This document shows positions 9,221 to 57,887 of a stretch of 64,000 nt of DNA, one piece after another. Within the stretch, counting starts at the first letter, position 1, and every line of letters starts with the position of its first letter. Source of the stretch: an uncultured Atribacterota bacterium (GTDB lineage: Bacteria > Atribacterota > JALVIU01); NCBI GenBank assembly GCA_964462295.1, contig CAYWXH010000003.1:9653-73652 (forward strand), written 5' to 3'. Under the pieces are notes generated by a model, which was not told where the DNA came from, searched no databases, and saw only the letters and a program-made list of their open reading frames with translations. The position numbers and the translations under genes were made by a program.

Positions 9221-10168
9221 ATGTTTGTAAGTATAACTCCTAATCCTGCGATGGATTATATAATGATAATTAATAAGCTGGAGAAGGGGAAACATGTAAG
9301 CTCTATAAATGATTACTATTCCCCTGGAGGCAAAGGTATCCATACAGCAAGACTTGTTGCAAAATTTGGAATTCCTACTATGAGTGTAAATGCAGTGGGC
9401 GAGGGGAGGATAGGAAGAAAGCTTATTCTTCTCTTAAATGATGAGGGAATATATACAAATACTATTTTCTTGAGAGAGCATACCCGTACTGATGTAGTAA
9501 TTGTTGACCTTTCGGATAAGACAGAGACTACTATAACATCCCTTGGTCCACATATGGAGGAAGAAGACCTTAAAGAATTTATGCATGTGGTGGAGAAGTC
9601 AATATTAAATGCAGAAGTTGTCTTTATGGGTGGAAGTGTTCCTCGCGGAGCTCCATCTACCTTATATTATGATGTAATATCACTTGCAAAAAGTATAGGG
9701 GTAAAACACTGTATAGTTACAGCAAGGGGTGAATTATTAGAAAAGGCAGCAGAGGCAAAACCGTATGTCATAAAACCAGATACTTCTACTATAAAGGAAT
9801 ATTTTGGTTATAGTATAAAAGACCTGGACGGAAGTATAAAAATAGCTGAGAAGCTTATAGAACTTGGTGCTGAAAATGCCATAGTTTCTTATAAAGATAA
9901 AAACGATGTACTTGTTTCTAAGACAGGGAAAAAGGTGCTTTATAAGCTTAAATATGAAGAAAATATAAATCTTTTTGGGTCATCAGAAGCCCTTCTTGCA
10001 GGTGTTTCTATCGGAATCATGAAAGGACATGGATTGGAGGAGGCTACAAGGTTTGGTATGGGGCTTGCTTTGAAAGTAGCAACACTTGAGACTGTGTCTA
10101 TCTTTGATTTTTCACCAGAGAGTGTGGATGAAATGCTTCTAAAGGTAGAAGTAGAGGAACTTACATAG
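9221..10168 (+). CDS. PfkB-family sugar kinase (1-phosphofructokinase / tagatose-6-phosphate kinase subfamily)
   Basis: 315 aa. N-terminal SITPNPAMDY (TLNPxxD-type motif). GG motif SPGGKG. SD GAGGAGGG. Confidence 0.7.
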   Translation: MFVSITPNPAMDYIMIINKLEKGKHVSSINDYYSPGGKGIHTARLVAKFGIPTMSVNAVGEGRIGRKLILLLNDEGIYTNTIFLREHTRTDVVIVDLSDKTETTITSLGPHMEEEDLKEFMHVVEKSILNAEVVFMGGSVPRGAPSTLYYDVISLAKSIGVKHCIVTARGELLEKAAEAKPYVIKPDTSTIKEYFGYSIKDLDGSIKIAEKLIELGAENAIVSYKDKNDVLVSKTGKKVLYKLKYEENINLFGSSEALLAGVSIGIMKGHGLEEATRFGMGLALKVATLETVSIFDFSPESVDEMLLKVEVEELT

Positions 10169-10181
10169 GAAGGAGGCTATT

Positions 10182-10634
10182 ATGAGGGTAAGAGATGTCA
10201 TGAGGAGAGATCTTACCTCTATCCCTCCTCATACAAAGATTGGAAGAGTAATAGAACTTATGGAACGCATGAGAATAGCAGAACTTATTATTACAGATAA
10301 AAATTTTAAGGTAAAAGGAATAGTAACTGATGGTATAATAATGAGAGCAGCACTTCCAAGGTATTTTTCTTATCTTGACACAACTGCATATCTTCCCGAT
10401 TTAGATGAATTTGCAAGGGGACTCAAGGAACTTTCTGAGAAAGAGGTAAGTACAATAATGTTAAAGGATATTTATGTGATAAATGAGGATACAAAGGTCC
10501 TTGATTTAGTAGAGGTAATGGTAGGGAGGAGGCTGAAAATTTTACCTGTTACAGATAAGGAAGGTAGACTTGTAGGGGTGGTAGATCGACCATCTATGTT
10601 CAAAAAGGCTTTAGCCTATGATGTTGAGGAATAA
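10182..10634 (+). CDS. CBS-domain pair protein
   Basis: 150 aa with two CBS repeats (RVRDVMRRDLTSIPPHTKIGRVIELM.. and VSTIMLKDIYVINEDTKVLDLVEVMV..ILPVTDKEGRLVGVV). Confidence 0.7.
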   Translation: MRVRDVMRRDLTSIPPHTKIGRVIELMERMRIAELIITDKNFKVKGIVTDGIIMRAALPRYFSYLDTTAYLPDLDEFARGLKELSEKEVSTIMLKDIYVINEDTKVLDLVEVMVGRRLKILPVTDKEGRLVGVVDRPSMFKKALAYDVEE

Positions 10635-10651
10635 TATGGAAGGAGGTAGGT

Positions 10652-11854
10652 ATGGCACTTAAGGGTAATGCTATTATAGGGCAATCAGGTGGCCCAACAC
10701 AGGTAATTAATCAGACACTTGTAGGTATTATAAAAGAGGCAAGAAAACATGAAGAGATTGAAACACTCTATGGTGCTATTCATGGTGTAGCAGGAATTTT
10801 GGGAGATGAATTTGTCGATTTAGGAAACCTTTCATATCCGGAATTAGATTTAATAGCAAAAACCCCGGGTGCAGGTTTAGGTTCTGTAAGAAAAAAACCG
10901 ACAGAAGAAGAATGTATGTCTATGTTGCGCATGTTTCAGGCGAAGAATATTCGCTATTTTTTCTATATAGGAGGAAATGATTCTGCAGAAACTGCCTATA
11001 TAATTGATGACTTTGCAAAAAGAGAAAATTATGATTTGGTAGTATTTCATGTCCCTAAAACTATAGATAATGACCTTCTCGTTAATGATCATACTCCAGG
11101 ATACGGCTCTGCTGCACGATTTGTTGCTATGGCTTTTATGGGAGATAATCAGGATAATAAATCTCTTGGAGGTATAAAGATAAATGTAGTCATGGGAAGA
11201 CATGCAGGATTCCTTACGGCAGCCTCTATTTTGGCAAAACAGAGGGAAGAGGACGGTCCGCATCTTATATATGTGCCTGAGAAAGATTTTGATTTTGATA
11301 ACTTTTTACAAGATGTAGAAGATATTTATAGAAGACTAGGTAGGGTGCAAATTGCAGTATCTGAAGGGGTTCAAAGAGATGGAAAACCTATATATTCTAC
11401 AGGTTATACAGATTCACATGGCAATGTTCAACTTGGGACAGCTGGCGAATTAGGGGCATTCCTTGCCGATTTTGTAAAAAGAGAGTTAGGTGGTAGACTT
11501 CACAAAAAGCTTAGAGTAAGGGCGGACACCTTTGGATATATACAGAGGTCTTTTCCTATGCAGTCTGAGGTAGATGCTCAAGAGGCTTATATGGTAGGTC
11601 AAAAAGCCGTAGAATATGCTATAACAACAGAGAAAAGTGGAAGTGTAGCCATAAAGAGGTTAGGAACCGATATAGCATCTTATGGTTCAGATACCTTTAT
11701 TACGCCACTGGAATCTGTAGCAAGACATACAAAGTCCCTGCCATTAGAGTATATTTCTGAAAGGGGAAACAATATCTTAGATAGTTTTAAAGAATATGTA
11801 GGCCCATTAGTTGGAGTACTTCCTAAAATGGGGTATATAGAAGGGGTCAAATAA
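10652..11854 (+). CDS. pfp: 6-phosphofructokinase, probably pyrophosphate-dependent (PFP-type)
   Basis: 400 aa. PFK fold motifs IRYFFYIGGNDSAETA, PKTIDNDL, MGRHAGFL. Length and sequence favour the PPi-dependent group over ATP-PfkA. Confidence 0.75.
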   Translation: MALKGNAIIGQSGGPTQVINQTLVGIIKEARKHEEIETLYGAIHGVAGILGDEFVDLGNLSYPELDLIAKTPGAGLGSVRKKPTEEECMSMLRMFQAKNIRYFFYIGGNDSAETAYIIDDFAKRENYDLVVFHVPKTIDNDLLVNDHTPGYGSAARFVAMAFMGDNQDNKSLGGIKINVVMGRHAGFLTAASILAKQREEDGPHLIYVPEKDFDFDNFLQDVEDIYRRLGRVQIAVSEGVQRDGKPIYSTGYTDSHGNVQLGTAGELGAFLADFVKRELGGRLHKKLRVRADTFGYIQRSFPMQSEVDAQEAYMVGQKAVEYAITTEKSGSVAIKRLGTDIASYGSDTFITPLESVARHTKSLPLEYISERGNNILDSFKEYVGPLVGVLPKMGYIEGVK

Positions 11855-11874
11855 AAAACCGAAAGGAGGTGTAT

Positions 11875-11900
11875 CTGAAAAAGGAGGGTTCCTTTTTCAG
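11875..11900 (+). promoter_or_regulatory. Perfect 11-bp inverted repeat ctgaaaaagga-gggt-tcctttttcag between pfp and the next gene. Possible weak terminator or SD-sequestering hairpin.
   Basis: Read directly. The stem contains the SD-like aaggaggg and is followed by aagttttATG. Confidence 0.4.
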
Positions 11901-11907
11901 AAGTTTT

Positions 11908-13503
11908 ATGAGAAAAGTTAGAATTTTAGGTTTTACGCTATTAGTTTTACTATTGTTTACTACTTTGTCATTTGGTTCTTTGACCAGTGTTGTGCCTGAT
12001 AGTGCTGTATTAGTTATGGATGCAAACAATGCAGATAGTGTGATAGACTATCTATATAGTGATCAGATAAAATCTATGACAGGTGGAGAACTCGATATTG
12101 CAAAGGCGAGAGAAGATGTAAAAAATGAACTTGGATTTGATGCCTTGGATCCCGAATTTTTAAAGGGTCTCTTCTCTAATGGAATGACAATATCCATTAC
12201 AGGCTTTACTCAGATCGGTATTCCAGAGGTATTAGTAGTACTTTCTCCAAAAAATAAGATGAGCTTTTTAAAATTTGTAAAGGCCGTAGAGGATAAAACA
12301 GGTCTAAAAGAAGAAGTAGTGTCTTATAAGGGGATTAATATTACAAGATTGCCTATCCCAGATGTAAAAGAGAATGAGCCAAAAGAGCTTGCATGGTCTA
12401 TGTTTGGGAACTACATAGTTTTTGGCCTTACAGCTGCACCTGTAAAGGATGCTATTGAAGTCTTTAAGGGTGAAAGACCTGCAATTGATACGGCAGAGAA
12501 TTATATCGAAATTAGAAATAAGATAAAAGAGAAATTGGGAGATCTTCCATTTTTCTTCTATCTTGCAACAGATAAGTTTGCTACACTATTTGAGATCCTT
12601 AAATCTAAATTACCAGAAGAACAGGCAAAATCTTTGGAAAGCAGTATAGCTACTTTTTCTACTATGAGACCCATGGGGTTCTCAGGGGTAAGCACATCTT
12701 CAGGCTTTAGGGCATATGGCCTTATGGGTTTGCCGGATATGTATGTAAAATTATACAAAACCCTTACTTTCCCCAAACTTGAGTCTTTGAATCTCTTTCC
12801 TAAAAATACCTTCTTTTATTTAGGTGGAGTTATGCCCCTTTCTTGGGAGAAGATAAAGGATATTCTTCCTCCTGCGGCAAAAAAAGGAATAGAGGATTCC
12901 TTTGCTCAACTTAAAAATCAGACAGGGATGGATATCGAAAAACTTTTCTTAAGTTGGCTTGATAAAGAGCTTGCAGTTGGTGTATTTGATCCCTCAGGAA
13001 TGATTCCAAAGGTAGGTCTTATTCTTGGTTATACTAATCAAGATGCCGCTTGGAATGCTATAAACACACTTGCCTCTATGGCAGGCCCTGCCTTAGGTGC
13101 ACAACCTCAAGACAAAGAATATGAAGGTATCAAATACAAGGCTATTGAAAATCCTATGTTCCCTGTAGGTGCAGGGTTTGTAAAGGATAGGCTAGTAGTG
13201 GCCAGTGGCATAGAAAATATTATAGATGCTTCTTTAGGGAACATGGTGGGATTGGCTAAAAAGGCTACCCTCGGAGAGGCCTTGAGTACAGAAGGTCTTA
13301 CATCTATAATTTATATTGATTTTCAAGCTATCGTTTCTATTATAGAAAGGTTTGCAGGAATGGGCGGTGGATTAGATGACCAAACAAAAAAGGCACTTGA
13401 TGCCTTGAAAAAGGTAAAGGATATTGTATTTTGGTCTGGTTATGATAAAGGAATGGAATATTCCTTTATGTGGCTAAAAGTCAATAATGCTCAAAATCAA
13501 TAA
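11908..13503 (+). CDS. Large secreted hypothetical protein, possibly DUF3352-like
   Basis: ORF-track ORF 11869..13503 begins with GTG inside an SD. ATG 11908 (MRKVRILGFTLLVLLLFTTLSFG, signal peptide) is the likelier start. No catalytic motif recognised. Confidence 0.5.
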   Translation: MRKVRILGFTLLVLLLFTTLSFGSLTSVVPDSAVLVMDANNADSVIDYLYSDQIKSMTGGELDIAKAREDVKNELGFDALDPEFLKGLFSNGMTISITGFTQIGIPEVLVVLSPKNKMSFLKFVKAVEDKTGLKEEVVSYKGINITRLPIPDVKENEPKELAWSMFGNYIVFGLTAAPVKDAIEVFKGERPAIDTAENYIEIRNKIKEKLGDLPFFFYLATDKFATLFEILKSKLPEEQAKSLESSIATFSTMRPMGFSGVSTSSGFRAYGLMGLPDMYVKLYKTLTFPKLESLNLFPKNTFFYLGGVMPLSWEKIKDILPPAAKKGIEDSFAQLKNQTGMDIEKLFLSWLDKELAVGVFDPSGMIPKVGLILGYTNQDAAWNAINTLASMAGPALGAQPQDKEYEGIKYKAIENPMFPVGAGFVKDRLVVASGIENIIDASLGNMVGLAKKATLGEALSTEGLTSIIYIDFQAIVSIIERFAGMGGGLDDQTKKALDALKKVKDIVFWSGYDKGMEYSFMWLKVNNAQNQ

Positions 13504-14749
13504 TATAAAGAAGGCCCTTATTTGGGCCTTCTTTATTCTTTTATTTTCAACATCTGCCTTTTCTCATACGGCATCTACTACTATAGATGGGGGACTATGG
13601 CAAGGTACCCACTGGTATCACAGATTTATTCTTATTATCCCTGATAATCTTAAAATTAAAAATTATGTACTTTTGCATATAACAGGTTCAGAATCGATAG
13701 ATAGACCTCTTCCCTATCTCTCTTCCCTCTCTAATGCCTTAGGCATGGCCTGTGGAATAATCTATGATATTCCTAACCAACCTCTATTTGGCGGTTTAAG
13801 AGAAGATGCACTGTTATCATATAGTTTTGAACAATTTATAAAAACTAAGGATTCCCATTGGATAATTCTTAACCAGATGGCAAAAAGCGTAAGGGCTGCC
13901 ATGGATTACATAGAGGATTATTTTTCTCATCATTTTAATATTTCCCTTGAGGGTTTTATCTTATCAGGTGCATCAAAGAGGGGTTGGACCACATATATTG
14001 TTGGTGCGAAGGATAAAAGGGTTAGAGGGATAATTCCCCTCTCTTTTGATAATGTGAATTTCTTAAAAACACTTCCACATCAACTTGAGCAGTGGGGTGT
14101 TTATTCTTCTGACCTTTCTGATTATACAGAAAAAGGTATTGTGGATATGATGGCTACACCCATTGGAAAAAAGCTCTTAAAACAGATTGATCCATGGTAT
14201 ATGAGAAAGAAATTAAAAATACCCAAACTTATTGTTACAGGCACAAATGATACATATTGGACTATTGATGCAGCATCACTTTATTTTTCTGATTTATGGG
14301 GACCCAAATATATCTATTATATGCCCAATAGGGGGCATTCCTTGGGCTGGGATAGAAAGATATTTTCTACTATAGAAAAGTTTATTCTTTCAGTTGTATA
14401 TGGTTATAGACTTCCTTCCTTTAAATTTTCCTACGATTATACGGGAAAAGAAGATAGGGTTTATTTTCGAGTAAAAGGAAAAAAGATTCGACCAAAAGGT
14501 GTGAGTATTTGGTTTGCAACCTCGTATACAAAAGATTTTAGAGATGCTATTTTTCGGGAAAAACCACTCTTTTTTTCTTCTACAGAGAAGGCTTTTTTTG
14601 GCTGGATTTGGCTTCCTAAATCAAGGTTTATGGCATTTTATCCAGAAGTTGAGTATAATTTTCAGGATAAGAGCTATTATCTATGTGCGCCTGCTAGGAT
14701 AGTAAGAGGTCAACTTGCCCATCCGGAAATGGTCCCTTCTAAAAAATAA
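13487..14749 (+). CDS. Secreted alpha/beta-hydrolase-like protein, tentatively PhoPQ-activated pathogenicity-related protein (PqaA) family
   Basis: 420 aa. Signal peptide ALIWAFFILLFSTSAFS. Nucleophile-elbow-like LSGASKRGW. 17-nt overlap with the upstream gene. Confidence 0.4.
   Translation: MLKINNIKKALIWAFFILLFSTSAFSHTASTTIDGGLWQGTHWYHRFILIIPDNLKIKNYVLLHITGSESIDRPLPYLSSLSNALGMACGIIYDIPNQPLFGGLREDALLSYSFEQFIKTKDSHWIILNQMAKSVRAAMDYIEDYFSHHFNISLEGFILSGASKRGWTTYIVGAKDKRVRGIIPLSFDNVNFLKTLPHQLEQWGVYSSDLSDYTEKGIVDMMATPIGKKLLKQIDPWYMRKKLKIPKLIVTGTNDTYWTIDAASLYFSDLWGPKYIYYMPNRGHSLGWDRKIFSTIEKFILSVVYGYRLPSFKFSYDYTGKEDRVYFRVKGKKIRPKGVSIWFATSYTKDFRDAIFREKPLFFSSTEKAFFGWIWLPKSRFMAFYPEVEYNFQDKSYYLCAPARIVRGQLAHPEMVPSKK
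13507..13534 (+). terminator. Hairpin aaagaaggccc-ttattt-gggccttcttt followed by a T-rich tract. Lies inside the first codons of the 13487 ORF.
   Basis: Read directly. GC-rich centre, downstream attcttttatttt. Confidence 0.35.
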
Positions 14750-14858
14750 CATTTTAAAAATAGTATTCATAAGTCCAATAAAGTCCAAAAAAAGATTGTT
14801 TAAATTTATAAATTTTATATATATAAATATTTATTTTAATAGATTATATTTATTTAAC

Positions 14859-24937: not shown

Positions 24938-25396
24938 ATGGAGAAAATAGTTGCAACCAATAGGAAGGCAAGATTTAACTACCATATCTTGGATACATAT
25001 GAAGCTGGAATAGAGCTTAAGGGAAATGAGGTAAAATCAATAAGAGAGGGCAAAGTAAGTATAAATGAGTCCTTTGCTACTGTGAAAAACGGAGAAATTT
25101 TTGTACATAATATGCATATTTCCCCATATGAATTTGCAAATAGGTTTGCAGCAGACCCTAAAAGAAAGAGAAAGCTCCTATTACATAAAGAAGAGATTAG
25201 AAGAATTTCAAAAAGGGTTAGTGAAAAAGGTCTTACACTTATACCTTTAAAAGTTTATCTTAAAAACAATAAGGTAAAGGTAGAGCTTGGCATATGTAAA
25301 GGCAAGAAACTATATGATAAGAGGGAAACCATTGCGAAGCGTGATATGGAGCGCGAAATGAGAAGAAGGGGGCGAATGGTATCGACAGGGATATAG
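24938..25396 (+). CDS. smpB: SsrA-binding protein SmpB
   Basis: 152 aa. IATNRKARFNYHILDTYEAGIELKGNEVKSIR. Basic C-terminal tail. Confidence 0.9.
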   Translation: MEKIVATNRKARFNYHILDTYEAGIELKGNEVKSIREGKVSINESFATVKNGEIFVHNMHISPYEFANRFAADPKRKRKLLLHKEEIRRISKRVSEKGLTLIPLKVYLKNNKVKVELGICKGKKLYDKRETIAKRDMEREMRRRGRMVSTGI

Positions 25397-25714
25397 GGGG
25401 TATAAGTTGCGAGCCGAGCTCCTGTCTCGTAAAACCAGGACCAAACAAATAAACGCCGAAGACAACTTCGCACTAGCAGCTTAGTTAATTAAGCTGCCGC
25501 CTACCCTTCCTCTGATCCTCGGGAAGGAATAGGCGTCAATGAGAGGATCTTATCTTTCACCCTTGCCCACGGGGTGAAAGAGACATATTCTGTGGGCTTG
25601 CAATCTTCTCCCTGCCTGAGGGGGAGGAGATTGTGAAATTTAAACCTCAGGCTACGCTCGTAGAGGCTTGTACCAACATATCCCTGGACGCGGGTTCGAT
25701 TCCCGCCGCCTCCA
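25396..25714 (+). ncRNA. ssrA: Transfer-messenger RNA (tmRNA, SsrA)
   Basis: 5' GGGGG directly after the smpB stop. Internal tag ORF GCC GAA GAC AAC TTC GCA CTA GCA GCT TAG gives AEDNFALAA, followed by extra stops. 3' tRNA-like end GGACGCGGGTTCGATTCCCGCCGCCTCCA (T-arm plus acceptor with G3:U), followed by a T-run. CCA is not encoded. The exact 5' end is approximate. Confidence 0.85.
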
Positions 25715-25751
25715 TTTTTATGACTATTTAGCTGGAGGACAATATAAAGTA

Positions 25752-46772: not shown

Positions 46773-47259
46773 GATAATAAAGGTTGGAATGGCCGATATG
46801 GCCGTAAGTAATGATAGCTCTGCTATGCTTATTACATATGCATTAGGCTCTTGTGTAGGTGTAAGTCTCTATGACCCTGATAAGAAGGTAGGAGGCCTTA
46901 TCCATGTTATGTTGCCATCAAGTGATAAATTTAAAGCTGATCCTCGTTCTCCCAAGTTTGCAGATACCGGTATCCCTGCCATTGTAGAGGATATAGTAAA
47001 GATTGGAGGGAGAAAGAATAAATTGGTAGCAAAGATTGCAGGAGGTGCGCAGATGTTTGCATCTTCTGCAAAATCTAAAAGTAGTGTATTAAATATAGGT
47101 AGTAGAAATGTAGAAGCAGTAAAGGAAAATCTAAAAAAGCTAAATATTCCTATAGTTGCAGAAGATACAGGTGCAAATTATGCACGAACTATGGAGTTTT
47201 ATTTAGAAGATGGAAAAGTCCTTATTAAGACTATAGGAAAAGGAGAGAAGGTCCTTTGA
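46765..47259 (+). CDS. cheD: Chemoreceptor glutamine deamidase CheD
   Basis: 164 aa. GMADMAVS.. and ALGSCVGV (catalytic Cys). Confidence 0.8.
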   Translation: MSKIIKVGMADMAVSNDSSAMLITYALGSCVGVSLYDPDKKVGGLIHVMLPSSDKFKADPRSPKFADTGIPAIVEDIVKIGGRKNKLVAKIAGGAQMFASSAKSKSSVLNIGSRNVEAVKENLKKLNIPIVAEDTGANYARTMEFYLEDGKVLIKTIGKGEKVL

Positions 47260-47990
47260 GGCCTAATGATTTATCAGAAGAGCAATTATGGAAACTTTAT
47301 AAAAATACCGATGATAAAAGTATAGAAAAGAGACTAATAGAAAGATATTTACCAATTGTAAAATCGGTGGTAAATCAGGTATACCCCCTTTTATATGGAA
47401 ATGTTGATAAAGAAGACCTTGAAAGTTATGGTATCTTTGGTCTGATAGATGCAGTAAGAAAGTTCGACCTTAAAAAGAATGTAAGGTTTGAAAACTATGC
47501 TCGTATAAGAATTAGAGGGGCTATATTTGACAATATTCGTACACTTAGTTGGTTTCCTCGTTCCTTTATGGATAAAGTCAAGAGGATAGAAGGACTTTAT
47601 CAAAAAAAAGAACAGGAACTCGGTAGAATCCCTACCGATGAAGAAATGGCCGAGGAATTAGGGGTAAGTGTAGATAAATTTCGAAAAATGCTTGCAGAGG
47701 TAAGAGGGATAGGCCTTGTTTCTCTAGAGGAGAGAGAATGGGAGGCAAAGGATTTAAAATATGATCCACTGACTATTTCATTAGATGAAAGCCTAAGAGA
47801 TGTACTTAAAGAGACAATAGATAATTTACCTGAAAGGGAAAGATATATAATTAGTTTGTACTACTATGAGGGTTTGAGTTTTAAAGAAATTGCAAAAGTA
47901 TTGGGATTATCTGAATCAAGAATTTCTCAAATCCATACTAAAACCTTACTTTTATTAAGATCAAGGTTAAATGAGGCTTTGGGGGGATAA
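47256..47990 (+). CDS. fliA: Flagellar sigma factor FliA (sigma-28 / SigD type)
   Basis: 244 aa. Regions 2-4. Region 4.2 SESRISQIH is typical of FliA. Confidence 0.85.
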   Translation: MRPNDLSEEQLWKLYKNTDDKSIEKRLIERYLPIVKSVVNQVYPLLYGNVDKEDLESYGIFGLIDAVRKFDLKKNVRFENYARIRIRGAIFDNIRTLSWFPRSFMDKVKRIEGLYQKKEQELGRIPTDEEMAEELGVSVDKFRKMLAEVRGIGLVSLEEREWEAKDLKYDPLTISLDESLRDVLKETIDNLPERERYIISLYYYEGLSFKEIAKVLGLSESRISQIHTKTLLLLRSRLNEALGG

Positions 47991-47993
47991 GAG

Positions 47994-49394
47994 GTGAAGA
48001 TAAAGCTTGAGTTCTCCAAAAACAATATGGAGGCCTATGTAGAGATAGTTTCAGAAGAGGACGGTGTGTTAGAGAAGGAGTATTTAGAAAAAAAGGTCAT
48101 CCTTGATTTTCTTAGAGACCAAGGGCTAAGTTACGGTATAAAAGAGAATTTACCCGATGTTTTTAAAATAGGACAAAGATACCTTGTTGCAGTGGGTAAA
48201 CCCCCTACCCCTGGAAAAGATGCTATTATAGAGTTATTACATAATACCGATAGGGAGATTAAACCTAAGATTTTAGAAGATGGCAGGGTAGATTATAGGG
48301 AACTCGATACGACAGTGATTGTAAAAAAAGGGGAGGTTATTTTAAAGCGTAAGCCTCCTACAGAGGGCTCTCCTGGTATAAGTGTAAAAGGGGAAATTGT
48401 ACCATCAAGGCCTGGAAGAGAAGTTCCTTTACCGATAGGATTAAATGTTGAGATATCTAAAGATGATCCAAATATACTTGTATCGAAGATAGATGGGCAA
48501 CTTATCGAGGAAGATGAGAAAATTAGTGTATTTCCAGTCTATGAGGTAAAAGGCAATCTTGATTTTTCTGTGGGTAATGTTAGTTTTCCTGGAAATGTTA
48601 TAATAAGGAGAAATGTTAAACCTGGATTTAAAATAGAGGCCAAAGGAAAGGTGGAGGTATATGAATCTGCTGAAGAATGTGATATAATATCAGAAGGAGA
48701 TATAATAATAAGAAAATCTTTTATAGGTAAAAATAGATCTTTACTTAAAAGTGATGGTAGTATTACTGTAGGTTTTATAGATGGGGCAAAGGCATTTGCA
48801 AAAAAAGATATAATTTCTCATTCTGCTATTATGCATAGTAATATATCTGCAGGAGAGAGTGTTATTGTGGAGGGAAAGGGTATTATTACAGGGGGAGAAA
48901 TTCAAGCAGAGAAGGGTATAGTGGCAAGAATTGTGGGCTCAAAATTTGGTACACATACAGTTTTAAAGATTAAAAAACCTGTAGATACTACTAATAAAAT
49001 AAAAAATTTAAGAGAGAGTTTAAAAGAAAAGAGTAAACTTATACAAAGCTTAGATGTAAAAATAAAGGTATTTGGACAGGATTTTACCTTTGAGAAATTA
49101 AAAAAGTCCTTTTTAAGAAAAGAACTAAAAATGTCTCCTCCACAGGAGGTATTAGTAAAGAAGCTATTAGCAACATATGATACCTTGATGAAAGAAGTAG
49201 AAACTATTCAGAAAGAGATATTATCTTTAGATAATTTAATTCAAAAATTTAAAAATTCTGTTATAATAATAAAAGATACTGTGTTTCCTGGTGTTATTAT
49301 TATGTTTGATGAAAATTTCTATAAAGTTAGAGATGCATTGCGGGGTGTGAAATTTTACCTTGAGGGTAATGAGATAAAGATTTCAGATGCATAG
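47994..49394 (+). CDS. FapA-like (DUF342) flagellar-associated protein
   Basis: 466 aa. Central beta-helix-like degenerate repeats rich in G/V/I (GNVSFPGNVIIRRNV..GKVEVYESAE..GDIIIRKSF..). C-terminal coiled coil. Position directly after fliA. Confidence 0.5.
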   Translation: MKIKLEFSKNNMEAYVEIVSEEDGVLEKEYLEKKVILDFLRDQGLSYGIKENLPDVFKIGQRYLVAVGKPPTPGKDAIIELLHNTDREIKPKILEDGRVDYRELDTTVIVKKGEVILKRKPPTEGSPGISVKGEIVPSRPGREVPLPIGLNVEISKDDPNILVSKIDGQLIEEDEKISVFPVYEVKGNLDFSVGNVSFPGNVIIRRNVKPGFKIEAKGKVEVYESAEECDIISEGDIIIRKSFIGKNRSLLKSDGSITVGFIDGAKAFAKKDIISHSAIMHSNISAGESVIVEGKGIITGGEIQAEKGIVARIVGSKFGTHTVLKIKKPVDTTNKIKNLRESLKEKSKLIQSLDVKIKVFGQDFTFEKLKKSFLRKELKMSPPQEVLVKKLLATYDTLMKEVETIQKEILSLDNLIQKFKNSVIIIKDTVFPGVIIMFDENFYKVRDALRGVKFYLEGNEIKISDA

Positions 49395-49408
49395 GGAGGG
49401 TGGGACAG

Positions 49409-49744
49409 GTGGCACTTAGACCTATAGATTTACAAAATATTATAAATGCCTCTGTAGAGGTGGCAAAGGTGGCCCAGACAAGAAATGATACACCTAACTT
49501 ACAACAAGGTCAGTTCGCCATTCAACTTCAAAGAGAGGCAGATAGAAAAAAAGAGCAAATTCAAAAGGGAGAAGGAAATGATGCCCAGGAGACAAAAATA
49601 AAAGATGAACACCAGAGAAGAAGGGGCTCAGAAAGAGAACCCCAAAAAAGGAAAAGAGAACCATTAGTAAAAGAAGAAAAAGAAAAAACCAAAAAAGTTC
49701 TTCTTGTAAAGAAAGAAGTTAAACATATTGATATAAAAATATAA
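49409..49744 (+). CDS. Small, highly charged K/E/R-rich hypothetical protein
   Basis: ORF-track ORF 49400..49744 (GTG start). GTG 49409 with SD GGGAGGG at 8-nt spacing preferred. No recognisable domain. Confidence 0.3.
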   Translation: MALRPIDLQNIINASVEVAKVAQTRNDTPNLQQGQFAIQLQREADRKKEQIQKGEGNDAQETKIKDEHQRRRGSEREPQKRKREPLVKEEKEKTKKVLLVKKEVKHIDIKI

Positions 49745-54223: not shown

Positions 54224-55312
54224 ATGAGGTGGGTTTCTTTAAAATTTGTCAAGCCACATATGCGCTTGGCCAAGTCTATATATTCATCAGATGGTAGGGT
54301 ACTCCTTGCAGCAGGGATTGAATTAAATGAGCGTTTTATTCAACGACTCAGAGAGCTTGGGATAAATGGGGCTTATATTGAAGATGGTATAACTGAAGAT
54401 ATTATAGTTGAGGATGTAATATCTGATAAGACAAGACTTGAGGCTATACATACAATTAGAAATATAATGGAAGAGATAGATATAGAAAAGTGTATAGATG
54501 AAGAGGCTAAGGAAAGAATAAAAGTAGATCTTGCACGGGGTGCAGTTTCAAAGATTCTTGATGACCTAAGTTTGAATAGAGACTTGATAGTTAGCCTTTT
54601 GGATCTTAGGTCTTATAATGATTATACATTTGCCCATTCGGTTAATGTAACAATTCTTTCTCTGGTTTTAGGTGTCGCACTTTCTCTTAATGAACTTGAA
54701 ATAAAGGACCTGGGCATAGGGGCCTTACTTCATGATGTAGGTATGGCAAGAATTCCAAAGAAAATATACCTAAAACCAGGTCCTCTTACCAAAAAAGAGT
54801 ATGAAATAATAAAAGAACACCCAAGGATCGGATTTGATCTTTTGAGATGGAATCAGGATATAAGCCTGGTTGCCGCTCATGTGGCGTATCAGCATCATGA
54901 GAGGATGAATGGTACAGGGTATCCGAGAAAACTCGAAGGAGATCGTATACATAGATTTGCTCAAATTACCATGGTTTCCGATGTGTATGATTCTTTAACA
55001 TCAGATAGGGTATATAGAAAAAGGGTGTTGCCACATGAGGCGGTGGAATATCTTATGGGAGGAGCAGGCACACTCTTTAGTTTAAGGGTGGTAGAGGCAT
55101 TTGTAAAACATGTAGCTATATATCCTATAGGTGTAATGATAAGATTGAATACAGGAGAAAAAGGAGTGGTCGCAAAAATAAATAAACCTCTTCTTGCACG
55201 GCCTGTGATAAAGATTATACAGGATAAAGATGGGAATCCATTAAAAAATCCCAAATTAATAGACCTCTCCAAAGAGTTTACATTATCAATAGTTGAGGTG
55301 TTGGAAGGTTAG
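54224..55312 (+). CDS. HD-GYP domain protein (probable c-di-GMP phosphodiesterase)
   Basis: 362 aa. HSVNV..HDVGM..HHERMNGTGYP HD-GYP signature. 7-nt gap after cheY. Confidence 0.8.
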   Translation: MRWVSLKFVKPHMRLAKSIYSSDGRVLLAAGIELNERFIQRLRELGINGAYIEDGITEDIIVEDVISDKTRLEAIHTIRNIMEEIDIEKCIDEEAKERIKVDLARGAVSKILDDLSLNRDLIVSLLDLRSYNDYTFAHSVNVTILSLVLGVALSLNELEIKDLGIGALLHDVGMARIPKKIYLKPGPLTKKEYEIIKEHPRIGFDLLRWNQDISLVAAHVAYQHHERMNGTGYPRKLEGDRIHRFAQITMVSDVYDSLTSDRVYRKRVLPHEAVEYLMGGAGTLFSLRVVEAFVKHVAIYPIGVMIRLNTGEKGVVAKINKPLLARPVIKIIQDKDGNPLKNPKLIDLSKEFTLSIVEVLEG

Positions 55313-56063
55313 TTATTATCTCTTTATTACGATCATTTTTATATTTGGCCTTATTTTGGGAAGTTTTTTTAATGTATGTATATATAGGATCCCAAGAAGA
55401 GAGTCTATTATATTTCCTCCCTCTCATTGTCCAAAATGCGGTACCCCTTTAAAATTTTATGATAATATTCCTGTAGTAAGCTATCTTTTATTAGGGGGCA
55501 GATGTAGATACTGTAAGGAGAAAATATCTCCAATATATCCTATTACAGAACTTACCACAGGAATATTGTATGTAGGGCTTTACATACATTACGGTACCAA
55601 TCTATTTTTATTTTTTACCTTTCTTATCTTTGTATCTTTTCTTATAATAATTACATTTATAGATTTGGAACATATGATAATTCCAGATATCTTAGTATTT
55701 CCAGGAATTTTTATAGGCCTTTTGCTTTCATTGATAAGGGGAGATACAATTTTTTTAGATAGCCTCCTTGGCCTTTTGATCGGGGGAGGTGTTATATTTT
55801 TGATAGTTTTTCTAAGTAGAGGTGGAATGGGAGAGGGTGATATAAAACTTTCTGCAATGATTGGAAGTTTTTTGGGGGTAAAATTTACAATTATTACACT
55901 TTTGTCATCCTTTATTTTAGGAGGAATTGTGGGGATTCTCTTGCTTTTCCTTAAGATTAAAAGTAGAAAGGACCCCATACCTTTTGGGCCATTTCTTGCC
56001 TTAGGGGCTATTTTATCTTTATTTTGGGGCCAAACAATTGCAAATATATGGGGGTGGTATTAA
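55293..56063 (+). CDS. Prepilin peptidase (peptidase A24, PilD/TadV-like)
   Basis: 256 aa. N-terminal TM then GSFFNV..R.P, CPKCG..CRYC zinc motif, polytopic C-terminal half with a catalytic Asp region. No in-frame ATG; TTG start overlapping the HD-GYP gene by 20 nt. Confidence 0.7.
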   Translation: MRCWKVSYYLFITIIFIFGLILGSFFNVCIYRIPRRESIIFPPSHCPKCGTPLKFYDNIPVVSYLLLGGRCRYCKEKISPIYPITELTTGILYVGLYIHYGTNLFLFFTFLIFVSFLIIITFIDLEHMIIPDILVFPGIFIGLLLSLIRGDTIFLDSLLGLLIGGGVIFLIVFLSRGGMGEGDIKLSAMIGSFLGVKFTIITLLSSFILGGIVGILLLFLKIKSRKDPIPFGPFLALGAILSLFWGQTIANIWGWY

Positions 56064-57188
56064 ATGGAAGTATCAAGACTAAATAAAATACCAGAGCCGA
56101 TATCTATTGAGATAGATAGTATATTTGAAGAACTCTCTGATAGGGAAAAAAGAGATGTTGATAGAGAAATTTTAGGTCTTTCTATTACTCCCTTTGATAT
56201 ACTTAATGAAACACTATCAGGTATAAGACCAGGATTCTACTATGGTATAGCGGGTGCACCCAGAAGAGGTAAGACAAACCTTACTTTGGAGCTTGGGTTA
56301 TTGGTTGCAAAAAATAATAAGATCCCAGTACTTTTCTATTCATGGGAACAGACTAGAAAGGTATTGGTAGCAAGACTGTTGTCTAAAAAAAGTGGTATAC
56401 CCCCTGCGCTTATTATGGGAGAAAATATATATAAAAGACCTGAACTTAAAGAAAAACTTGAAGATGCAAGAGAAGAACTTAGAGAGGTTTCAGAATGGTT
56501 TTATATGGTTGAAGCAGGAAGGATGCACAAAATATCCAGAATTCGTGAAGATGCTATGCGTATAATGGATATGAAAAAAACAGATAAGATTGCTATATTT
56601 ATAGATTATTTACAAAAAGTGCCCCCGGAAAAACCTGTACAAGATATGTCTTATCGTATAGATGATATATCTGCTGGACTTGCCGAACTTAGCCTTGAGC
56701 TTAGCTCCCCAGTATTTGCTATCTCTTCTCTTAATAAAGAGGGACTTAAATTGGATGAGACAGAGGATGATTCTCGTCCCACTATGCATCACTGTACAGG
56801 GAGTGGAGACCTTGAATATGATCTAGATGTTGCCATGATTTTATCTAAGGATTGGCCAGATACGAAAAGTTTAAAAAAACAGATAGATGAAAGGCTTAAG
56901 GCCCAAGGTATTGACCCTTATTCTTACCCTATGCCAAGGATAGATGTTATAAATATGTTTATAGATAAAAATAGAGATGCTATACCTGGTGTCTCAGATA
57001 TTATTCAATATCTATTTTTTATAGACCAGAATATGTATTTGGAGATAGGATATAAGCTTCCTGTAGAGATGGACCCATCTAAATTTAATAGATATGTAAA
57101 AATTGAGAAGATTATAGATACTTTAGTTGAGAAAGGGTTAATCTTCCAGGATCTTGAACAATGGAAAAAGAAAAGTTTAAAGATATAG
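56064..57188 (+). CDS. RecA-superfamily ATPase with a DnaB-helicase-C-terminal-like (KaiC-like) core and a ~110-aa C-terminal domain of unknown function
   Basis: 374 aa. Walker A GIAGAPRRGKTNL. Walker B IAIFIDYLQ (DnaB-like hhhhDYLQ). ATG directly follows the prepilin peptidase stop. 28-nt overlap with the downstream sigma factor gene. Confidence 0.5.
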   Translation: MEVSRLNKIPEPISIEIDSIFEELSDREKRDVDREILGLSITPFDILNETLSGIRPGFYYGIAGAPRRGKTNLTLELGLLVAKNNKIPVLFYSWEQTRKVLVARLLSKKSGIPPALIMGENIYKRPELKEKLEDAREELREVSEWFYMVEAGRMHKISRIREDAMRIMDMKKTDKIAIFIDYLQKVPPEKPVQDMSYRIDDISAGLAELSLELSSPVFAISSLNKEGLKLDETEDDSRPTMHHCTGSGDLEYDLDVAMILSKDWPDTKSLKKQIDERLKAQGIDPYSYPMPRIDVINMFIDKNRDAIPGVSDIIQYLFFIDQNMYLEIGYKLPVEMDPSKFNRYVKIEKIIDTLVEKGLIFQDLEQWKKKSLKI

Positions 57189-57856
57189 AAACTTTTTTTC
57201 CATTAGTCGAAAAGATTGCACGAAAATACAAAAAATCTCACATAGAACTTGATGATCTCCGTCAACAGGGAATGGTAGGACTTTTAGAGGCTCTACGTGC
57301 ATATGATCCAGAAAGAGAAAAAACCTTATTTGCATTTGTGTCAAAATATATAGAGGGCTCTATAAGGCATTATATAAGGGATAAGTCTACACTCATTAGA
57401 TATCCAAGGTGGTTTAGGGCATTGGCAAAGCGCATAGAGAATTTTATAGTAGATTTTAAAGAAAAAAGTGGGAGGCCACCTTCTATTTCCGAGATAGGAG
57501 AATCTTTAAATATTCAAGAAGATGGAATAAGGGAATATTTTCGAATAAAAACACTCCTTTATTTTCAATATTTTGAAGATAGTGAAAATAAACAAAATAT
57601 TGATTATAAATCTTTACGGACAAAGATAAGACATAAGACTTATGAAAGCTTTAAACTTCCTATAGAGGATATACTTACACTCTATGATGCCATAGATACA
57701 CTTTCAGAATTGAAGAAAAAGGTCGTTTATTATATATTTTTTCAAGGGTACACACATAAAGAAACAGCAGAGGAGATCGGTATATCAGAGAGACATGTTT
57801 CCCGGATGAAGAAAGAAGCACTTAATGAGCTTAAGGACAAATTAAAAGACAATTAA
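57161..57856 (+). CDS. Sigma-70-family alternative sigma factor (group 3, SigB/SigF-like)
   Basis: 231 aa. Region 2 (DLRQQGMVGLLEALRAYDPERE..FAF). Region 4.2 ISERHVSRMKKEAL. Distinct from the fliA product upstream. Confidence 0.75.
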   Translation: MEKEKFKDIETFFPLVEKIARKYKKSHIELDDLRQQGMVGLLEALRAYDPEREKTLFAFVSKYIEGSIRHYIRDKSTLIRYPRWFRALAKRIENFIVDFKEKSGRPPSISEIGESLNIQEDGIREYFRIKTLLYFQYFEDSENKQNIDYKSLRTKIRHKTYESFKLPIEDILTLYDAIDTLSELKKKVVYYIFFQGYTHKETAEEIGISERHVSRMKKEALNELKDKLKDN

Positions 57857-57858
57857 CC

Positions 57859-57887
57859 TTGACATATATAGGTCCTTGTGTTAAACT
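57859..57887 (+). promoter_or_regulatory. Sigma-70-type promoter for the amino-acid ABC transporter operon
   Basis: TTGACA (57859-57864), 17-nt spacer, TAAACT (57882-57887). Confidence 0.5.

Follow-up and report, generated by a model that had tools for sequence, protein, structure and literature searches.

A DnaB-type ATPase without an N-terminal collar, coupled to a SigF-like sigma factor in the tail of an Atribacterota flagellar operon, and its possible ties to type IV pili

Introduction

The archaeal ATPases ArlH/FlaH and CirA have a KaiC-like RecA fold and are encoded beside ArlI, a homologue of the pilus motor ATPase PilB (PMC5019145, PMC4858521, PMC10983859). On the transcriptional side, the group-3 sigma factor SigF of Synechocystis recognises the pilA1 promoter (PMC2532724). 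The subject of this paper is a locus that can be set beside both. It lies in a 64,000-nucleotide (nt) stretch of contig CAYWXH010000003.1 from an uncultured Atribacterota bacterium, referred to as the window, and consists of two overlapping genes, one encoding a RecA-type ATPase and the other an alternative sigma factor, here called sigX. A preliminary description of this DNA had read them as a DnaB/KaiC-like ATPase coupled to a SigB/SigF-type sigma factor and had suggested a sigma-regulatory or motility/pilus output device. The observation itself is confirmed and its interpretation is partly supported. The preferred explanation, with a probability of roughly 0.55, is that these two genes and those of an HD-GYP protein and the prepilin peptidase PilD just upstream form a pilus-linked block, appended to the flagellar/chemotaxis operon in a small clade of Atribacterota.

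How does the locus compare with the described systems? The archaeal logic would be shared in that the gene for an accessory RecA-superfamily ring ATPase adjoins those for the motor ATPase and platform protein of a type IV filament. However, ArlH/FlaH and CirA are KaiC-like and archaeal, whereas the present family is bacterial, belongs to helicase superfamily 4 (SF4) and retains the H4 nucleic-acid loop. Unlike the ArlH locus, the window itself has no pilB nearby. The pilus-cluster relatives of sigX are, like cyanobacterial SigF, linked to pilins, in their case by genome position. However, scores of the sigX lineage lie below the model cutoffs, and its candidate promoter motif occurs in Caldatribacteriota loci but not in the window. 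sigX is also of the same broad SigB/F/G type as the sigma factors governed by partner switching, in which a GHKL anti-sigma kinase (RsbW/SpoIIAB) is paired with a STAS anti-anti-sigma factor. No GHKL or STAS gene adjoins sigX, though. Its neighbours encode PilD, an ABC-transporter binding protein and the DnaB-type ATPase, which has no known anti-sigma activity.

One more group of enzymes is relevant. RadA/Sms and ComM/ComFA are ring or RecA-like ATPases that act on DNA from pilus-dependent uptake, some of them with zinc-finger N-termini. In this respect the latter are comparable to the zinc-ribbon long forms described below. RadA differs from the window ATPase, which has no Lon-like domain, reaches 14.7 bits with the RadA model (TIGR00416, cutoff 403) and has no competence genes nearby.

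Identity of the ATPase

Profile searches of the ATPase gave a split result. It scores 103.7 bits with Pfam DnaB_C (PF03796), above the gathering score of 27, but 102.5 bits with the replicative DnaB equivalog model TIGR00665, which has a cutoff of 385.25, and the other NCBI DnaB equivalog models are likewise far under their cutoffs. Identity to Geobacillus DnaB is about 28% (24-29% across the family). A Pfam search returned no KaiC family match at E<=0.1. An AlphaFold2 model built on 65 homologues has a mean predicted local distance difference test score (pLDDT) of 90.3 and a predicted template modelling score (pTM) of 0.88. The 50 best Foldseek matches listed for this model in the PDB consist of DnaB and phage G40P structures, with no KaiC or RadA among them; the best E is 6.7e-19, and the template modelling (TM) score between the model and the G40P ATPase domain is 0.85. 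Because every one of these fold matches is DnaB or G40P, the predicted structure places the ATPase in the DnaB clade. The KaiC-like label of the preliminary description is therefore dropped, and identity with KaiC or RadA is rejected.

The model shares with DnaB and G40P (PDB 7t22, 4esv, 2r6a, 3bh0) the RecA-type C-terminal fold and the linker helix, here residues 13-30. A BLASTP alignment to Geobacillus DnaB maps the motifs. Walker A (H1), GAPRRGKT, is at residues 64-71 (G64-T71) and Walker B (H2), IDYLQ, at 180-184 with D181, both as described earlier. The catalytic Glu (H1a) is E95, with SWEQT aligned to DnaB SLEMS. The H4 loop spans 246-255 (G246-D255), with GSGDLEYDLD aligned to ESGSIEQDAD, and the trans Lys/Arg finger is K302/R304 (KNRD). 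None of these motifs (H1, H1a, H2, H4 and the Arg finger) varies across 65 family sequences. The inter-subunit NTPase site and the H4 loop are thus intact, and the ATPase is predicted to form an NTP-hydrolysing ring.

The ATPase differs from DnaB in a Ser at the position of the H3 Gln, an extra helix at 264-280 and a tail of two helices. The last of these bears on the C-terminal domain of about 110 residues that had been proposed before. This was an overstatement because the DnaB RecA core, including the inserted helix, runs in strands to about residue 330; what stands is a family-specific tail of about 45 residues (helices within 341-373). At the other end the protein starts at the linker helix, so the earlier statement that a helicase N-domain is missing holds. 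The DnaB N-domain (PF00772, the primase-binding collar), which the long-form relatives also have, is absent. Nor is the separate N-domain of the long forms encoded elsewhere in the window, and a split-gene origin was rejected on this ground. Two other origins were also discarded: an anti-phage defence system (no PADLOC match) and a phage or mobile element (no relatives in 2.9 million viral contigs). Matches in PHROG (phrog_19, 113.7 bits) only restate that the protein is DnaB-like.

The DnaB paralogue family

Relatives of the ATPase were found in 262 species-level genomes, one genome having been scanned per species. The closest, at 86% identity, is in a Candidatus Atribacteria metagenome-assembled genome (MAG). 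The other labels are Armatimonadota, Sysuimicrobiota, Caldisericota, Wallbacteria, Cloacimonadota, Mcinerneyibacteriota, Bacillota, Limnocylindrales and Acidiferrales/Sulfotelmatobacter. The short form makes up only five protein clusters of 369-374 amino acids (aa) that are 79-100% identical. Nearly all remaining homologues listed, at 42-52% identity, are 460-640 aa long with an extra N-terminal region, and the few shorter ones outside the clade stem from contigs of less than 2.4 kb. Because the family profile aligns to residues 17-414 of full-length Geobacillus DnaB and some long-form N-termini score as much as 30.3 bits with Pfam DnaB-N against a cutoff of 23 (a divergent N-domain), the long forms have the complete DnaB layout of N-domain, linker and C-domain.

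A subgroup of 570-640 aa carries an N-terminal zinc ribbon (CPxCG...CPFC; coordinates in Table 1). In three of its loci (L037, L025 and L057) the DnaB-like gene is preceded by genes for an extracytoplasmic function (ECF) sigma factor and a zf-HC2 anti-sigma factor and has at +1/+2 a gene of one common cluster, which in L037 matches a Zn-dependent phospholipase-C-like Pfam family. L078 has the zinc ribbon without ECF sigma, zf-HC2 or phospholipase-type neighbours. One of these neighbourhoods holds a further gene worth recording. In L037, a Wallbacteria MAG, a PilB-type ATPase (MshEN and T2SSE domains) is fused to a C-terminal HATPase_c domain of the GHKL type (11658-14792, about 1044 aa), close to the ECF sigma, the zf-HC2 anti-sigma and the zinc-ribbon gene. 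This fusion is a possible direct link of pilus motor to sigma control. L025 encodes a putative PilB-type protein of 1016 aa (10003-13053), a length like that of the fusion, which clusters with T2SSE ATPases.

Is the family simply the replicative helicase of these lineages? Very low scores with DnaB models, a patchy distribution and the loss of the N-domain argue against a replicative role. No canonical dnaB was found within the 1.4 Mb of family loci, which are loci only and not whole genomes. The gene context, pilus and sigma genes, is also unlike that of DnaB, which has rplI and replication genes nearby. By sequence criteria, then, the window ATPase belongs to an uncharacterised family of DnaB paralogues, of which it is a form truncated at the N-terminus.

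The sigma factor

sigX was counted as having sigma-70 regions 2 (47.5 bits), 3 and 4 (52.6 bits), although region 3 is weak at 23.1 bits, just under its cutoff of 25.3. The best NCBIfam model is SigB/F/G (TIGR02980), at 146.2 bits against a cutoff of 234.35. Cyanobacterial-type SigF comes second with 131 bits, again below cutoff, and the FliA/WhiG model TIGR02479 gives 103.8 bits (cutoff 189.6). The order of these scores bears out the earlier view of a SigB/F-like rather than FliA-like protein, while membership of the SigB/F/G subfamily stays below threshold. The operon has a FliA of its own, to which sigX is only 24% identical, and sigX is accordingly classed as a second, different sigma factor of the operon. 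In the PADLOC search for defence systems it shows only generic similarity to MzaA.

The word-index search for homologues of sigX was shallow (22 matches), and the Armatimonadota sigmas were found by tblastn. The nearest relatives other than orthologues, at about 40% identity, are encoded in pilus clusters of Caldatribacteriota. Those in Armatimonadota pilus clusters are 36-39% identical (149-172 bits). All of these pilus-cluster sigmas classify as SigBFG/cyanobacterial-type SigF, as sigX does, and on the second-best, cyanobacterial-type SigF model they and sigX score 131-163 bits. Sequence comparison thus places sigX in a group-3, SigF-like lineage, the rest of which sits within pilus gene clusters.

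Type IV pilus genes near both families

Neighbourhoods were counted in 80 loci of the ATPase family, with genes assigned by a codon-position GC heuristic and tblastn maps. A T2SSE gene (pilB or pilT) lies within 5 kb of the ATPase gene in 37 of them, usually as the immediate neighbour, and a T2SSF/PilC gene in 22. These counts are minimum values, since the sequence extends 5 kb on both sides of the gene in only 36 loci. T2SSE and T2SSF genes occupy fixed positions (-1, +1 to +4) in Armatimonadota, Sysuimicrobiota, Wallbacteria, ANGP1 and Bacillota-labelled MAGs. One Armatimonadota layout has a divergent pilB followed by the DnaB-like gene, pilT and pilC. Another begins with a sigma gene and a Robl_LC7 gene and continues, after some distance, with a divergent pilB and then the DnaB-like gene, MerR, DUF6812, pilB, pilT and pilC. 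One MAG has a rather different setting (L058, 6917-11025): the DnaB-like gene stands between accB-like and accC-like genes, after efp, as judged by eye from the N-termini, and a pilB-type gene follows about 2.3 kb downstream.

The sigma family is tied to pili in its own way. The Caldatribacteriota clusters run pilB, a GAF-HD-GYP (GAF-HD_5) gene, pilC, two sigma genes in tandem, two to three DUF6982 genes, pilins and, further on, pilD; they also hold a PilB with an MshEN domain. The small partner gene beside the sigma differs by lineage. It is Robl_LC7 (MglB-like), directly after the SigF-like sigma, in both Pfam-annotated Armatimonadota-type clusters (L091 4959-6046; L092 2737-3928), versus the two to three DUF6982 genes in Caldatribacteriota.

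Upstream of the Caldatribacteriota pilins, beside the tandem SigF-like sigma genes, lies the motif GTCTAAA-N14-GGAATAAT. Its core, GTCTAA-N12-16-GGAATA, has five exact matches, all five directly upstream of pilins and each of the form GTCTAAA-N14-GGAATAA[T/C]; the other 95 of the 98 loci examined contain none. The motif resembles SigB/F-type promoters such as the B. subtilis sigma-B consensus, and GTCTAAA-N14-GGAATAAT is a candidate promoter for the SigF-like lineage. The pilin 5' leaders in Caldatribacteriota also contain tandem cyclic di-GMP (c-di-GMP)-I riboswitches (Rfam RF01051) with scores of 59.7-81.3 bits (gathering score 35).

The operon end and its conservation

The open reading frames, their lengths, the 28-nt overlap and the ATPase ATG abutting the PilD stop (TAA, 56061-56063) are as first reported (Table 1). 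PilD may start near 55356 instead, which would give 235 aa, and the gene call in locus L001 is 235 aa long. Translational coupling looks as tight as had been claimed: besides the overlap and the abutting ATG there is a Shine-Dalgarno-like GGGGGTGG ahead of the ATPase and an AGGA at 57148-57151, 9 nt 5' of the sigma ATG. The pair does stand at the operon end, since all genes from flagellar export through sigX are on the plus strand with gaps of less than about 45 nt. A separate promoter for sigX was looked for and rejected: between 53.8 and 58.1 kb there are 16 promoter-like sites (18.8 expected from shuffled sequence), and no terminator is seen between the operon-end genes. Because of the single strand, the small gaps and the lack of a promoter excess or terminator, co-transcription with coupled translation of the ATPase and sigX is the simplest reading of the DNA.

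Table 1. Positions of the features discussed, in window coordinates unless a locus label (L and a number) is given
Feature	Position	Strand	Basis or remark
FliA/WhiG sigma, bona fide, same operon	47256..47990	+	NCBIfam FliA_WhiG 234.3 bits, cutoff 189.6
HD-GYP (HD_5) phosphodiesterase-type gene	54224..55312	+	Pfam HD_5 91.8 bits; first gene of pilus-linked tail block
Prepilin peptidase PilD (A24)	55293..56063	+	Pfam A24_N_bact 126 bits, Peptidase_A24 68 bits
Shine-Dalgarno-like GGGGGTGG for ATPase, within pilD 3' end	56050..56057	+	Read from sequence
N-domain-less DnaB-family (SF4) predicted ring ATPase, 374 aa	56064..57188	+	Pfam DnaB_C, AlphaFold2, Foldseek, invariant motifs
ATPase 3' end/sigma start overlap, 28 nt	57161..57188	+	Open reading frame coordinates
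Group-3 SigB/F/G-like sigma factor sigX, 231 aa, last operon gene	57161..57856	+	NCBIfam scores
Promoter-like TTGACA-N17-TAAACT with upstream TG	57859..57887	+	Likely promoter of downstream unrelated amino-acid ABC transporter operon; operon boundary
Pilin-upstream motif	L095 10824-10850, 11336-11362; L096 12593-12619; L098 10845-10871, 11383-11409		Candidate promoter
Tandem c-di-GMP-I riboswitches	L095 11398-11669; L096 12654-12947; L098 11448-11702		Rfam RF01051
Zinc-ribbon DnaB-like genes	L037 8321-10087; L025 3013-4863; L057 6435-8159; L078 3821-5608		N-terminal CPxCG...CPFC

The pairing is well kept within its clade. Every short-form locus examined has the order HD-GYP, PilD, ATPase, sigma with an ATPase/sigma overlap of 28 nt (L011 and L093) or 14 nt (L097). 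Where downstream synteny differs the block still closes the operon, and one locus keeps all four genes with different genes downstream and a sigma at 63% identity. Identities of ATPase and sigma between short-form loci are 91/70, 86/69 and 87/63%, which makes the ATPase the better conserved of the two.

Beyond the clade the picture is looser. Immediate adjacency is limited to this narrow group of Atribacterota (ATPase 79-100% identical) and one Caldiserica MAG. The idea that the ATPase is always beside a sigma factor thus stands in the short-form clade but not outside it, where the only immediate sigma neighbour seen is the ECF sigma gene of L090, 110 nt downstream. Of the 80 loci, 17 have a sigma-70-family gene of some kind within 5 kb and 21 have one within 10 kb. 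Two patterns recur: a sigX-like sigma 3.4-7 kb upstream of the DnaB-like gene in Armatimonadota-type loci, and, in Wallbacteria/Cloacimonadota-type loci, an ECF sigma and a zf-HC2 anti-sigma a short way 5' of the zinc-ribbon gene. The longer family members (about 500-640 aa) are not next to a SigF-like sigma.

A few other features of the window can be noted here. Between fliA and cheR (47994-49744, +) are genes for a 466-aa protein with a FapA domain and a small protein of 111-114 aa without a Pfam match. A PilZ-domain gene precedes cheC in the operon, and a transfer-messenger RNA gene lies at 25368-25717 (+; Rfam RF00023, 205.6 bits).

Weighing the explanations

The window block looks pilus-related because both gene families recur in type IV pilus clusters, and this agrees with the pilus output that had been suggested for it at the outset. 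A link between the ATPase and sigX through pili is plausible because of what is conserved across phyla, namely the ATPase with pilB, pilT and pilC, the sigma with pilus clusters and, more loosely, the ATPase with sigma genes. In this clade the flagellar/chemotaxis operon ends with the block, and read-through would therefore co-produce all four proteins. sigX may then direct RNA polymerase to SigB/F-like promoters of pilin or other pilus genes elsewhere in the genome, as SigF does at pilA1, and c-di-GMP, degraded by the HD-GYP enzyme, may tune the same pilus system. The ATPase would use its linker helix to build a ring that hydrolyses NTP. Because the N-terminal collar is missing, this ring is not expected to be a replicative helicase. 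Instead it might be a pilus-associated accessory motor that acts either on single-stranded nucleic acid that the pilus system handles or on a PilB-type ATPase, the latter by analogy with archaeal ArlH beside ArlI. Translational coupling would keep its production in step with that of sigX.

Several observations weigh against this explanation. The window contains no pilB, pilT, pilC or pilin genes, only PilD and HD-GYP adjoin, and the pilus system of the organism is therefore assumed rather than seen. The pilin-promoter motif has no exact match in the window, and with three mismatches there are four matches where six are expected. In about half of the family loci (Caldisericota and an ANGP1/Acidiferrales-type group) neither pilus genes nor sigma genes lie within 10 kb. 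In Caldisericota the order plsY-Germane-amidohydrolase-DnaB-like-405-aa gene-MoCF_biosynth is fixed (L007/L008 4601-8243 and 12 other loci) without pilus genes nearby, so the context of the family is lineage-specific; the identity of the 405-aa gene is unconfirmed, possibly phosphoglycerate-mutase-like. Many of the pilus-linked loci are from related Armatimonadota and cannot be counted as independent events. Motif H3, which holds a glutamine in DnaB (SQLSR), aligns with AISSLNK; at the Gln position the ATPase has Ser and the family a variable residue (Ser/Pro). Loci with Pfam-annotated gene calls contain no comEA, comEC or dprA. Finally, a literature search for a DnaB-like, KaiC-like or RecA-fold ATPase tied to bacterial type IV pili or to a sigma factor found nothing relevant, and the same was true of Atribacterota pili.

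Some of these points bear equally on another possibility, a part of the family in natural transformation. A DnaB-type ring would then serve as a DNA-transaction helicase that draws in or processes the single-stranded DNA taken up by way of pili, with a role like that of ComFA, RadA or ComM, and the window copy would be a reduced ATPase/single-stranded DNA-binding core. The full DnaB architecture of the long forms, the invariant H1, H1a, H2, H4 and Arg finger, the zinc ribbon of some members and the position of the genes within pilB-pilT-pilC operons, including that of the retraction ATPase PilT, would all suit such a helicase. So, weakly, would the MoCF_biosynth gene after the Caldisericota member, which may be CinA-like. 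However, recA and ssb are missing from the Pfam-annotated loci along with the competence genes just named, and the H3 Gln is lost. DnaB moves 5'->3', which does not suit DNA import with the 3' end first. Studies of DnaB fragments show that the N-domain is needed for helicase activity, and the short form has none. Taken together, a role in DNA uptake is rather doubtful. What if the ATPase is instead a dedicated regulator of sigX? It could act as an ATP-dependent anti-sigma, sigma-release or promoter-remodelling factor in place of the GHKL-kinase/STAS switch, of which no gene is seen next to sigX. The overlap and the shared operon end are kept in all short-form loci, even with the sigma at 63%, and other members of the ATPase family repeatedly have a sigma-family gene in their neighbourhood, as in the zf-HC2/ECF loci and L090. 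A hexameric ATPase acting with a sigma factor at pilin promoters also has a precedent in PilR with sigma-54. However, only one narrow clade has a SigF-like sigma gene directly beside that of the ATPase, the Caldatribacteriota pilus-cluster sigmas have no DnaB-like gene within 9 kb, and Caldisericota and others have the ATPase without such a sigma. The 21% of loci with a sigma gene within 5 kb is only a modest enrichment because sigma-70/ECF genes are numerous in genomes, and the sigmas concerned fall into more than one class, SigF-like or ECF. The constancy of the H4 loop suggests nucleic acid rather than protein as the substrate. Dedicated regulation of sigX is therefore judged unlikely. The case for a RecA-ATPase sigma-switching module, as hinted at in the preliminary description, is an adjacency that is immediate only in the narrow clade and one Caldiserica MAG, and the case for direct regulation is co-translation only. 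The more specific version, in which a DnaB-derived hexameric ATPase was recruited as the ATP-dependent partner of a SigF-like sigma controlling type IV pilus genes, either to hold and release the sigma or to open pilin promoters, is quite improbable.

It could also be that the adjacency is incidental and that the ATPase is a decaying or mobile-element helicase fragment, or the divergent replicative DnaB of this lineage, with no tie to sigma factors or pili. DnaB-like helicases are common in phages and islands, as the PHROG match recalls, half of the family loci have housekeeping-type neighbours, and the 1.4 Mb of family loci in which canonical dnaB was not found is too little DNA to judge coexistence. 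However, the protein is not decaying, since it is 79-91% conserved across species, beside a sigma only 60-70% identical, and keeps every catalytic residue. The lack of viral relatives and of a defence-system match argues against a mobile element, and the score with the replicative model and the low identity to Geobacillus DnaB argue against a replicative enzyme. Nowhere else in the window is there a gene for the missing N-domain, and in several phyla the neighbouring pilus-motor genes keep fixed positions. Coincidence is thus very unlikely, and the pilus-linked block at the end of the flagellar/chemotaxis operon is preferred.

Implications

The association of a DnaB paralogue with type IV pilus genes and the truncated, sigma-coupled form of this paralogue are previously undescribed; a regulatory device is not demonstrated. 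If the linkage is functional, a DnaB paralogue joins PilB and PilT as an overlooked fourth ATPase of bacterial type IV pilus systems in several little-studied phyla (Armatimonadota, Sysuimicrobiota, Wallbacteria and Atribacterota), and the KaiC-like ArlH would be its parallel in archaella. Such an ATPase might account for the handling of DNA once a pilus has retracted, or for the relay of motor state to transcription. Should the ATPase indeed prove to be an ATP-dependent partner of sigX, the pair would be a sigma-70-family counterpart of the enhancer-binding ATPase logic of PilR and sigma-54, and the translationally coupled Atribacterota form without an N-terminal domain would be the most streamlined version of such a partner. 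The comparison also brings out, beyond the cyanobacteria, a lineage of SigF-like sigma factors within pilus clusters, accompanied by a candidate promoter motif and by control of pilins through c-di-GMP riboswitches. For the organism of the window, the arrangement suggests that transcription of the flagellar operon is wired to the regulation of pili.

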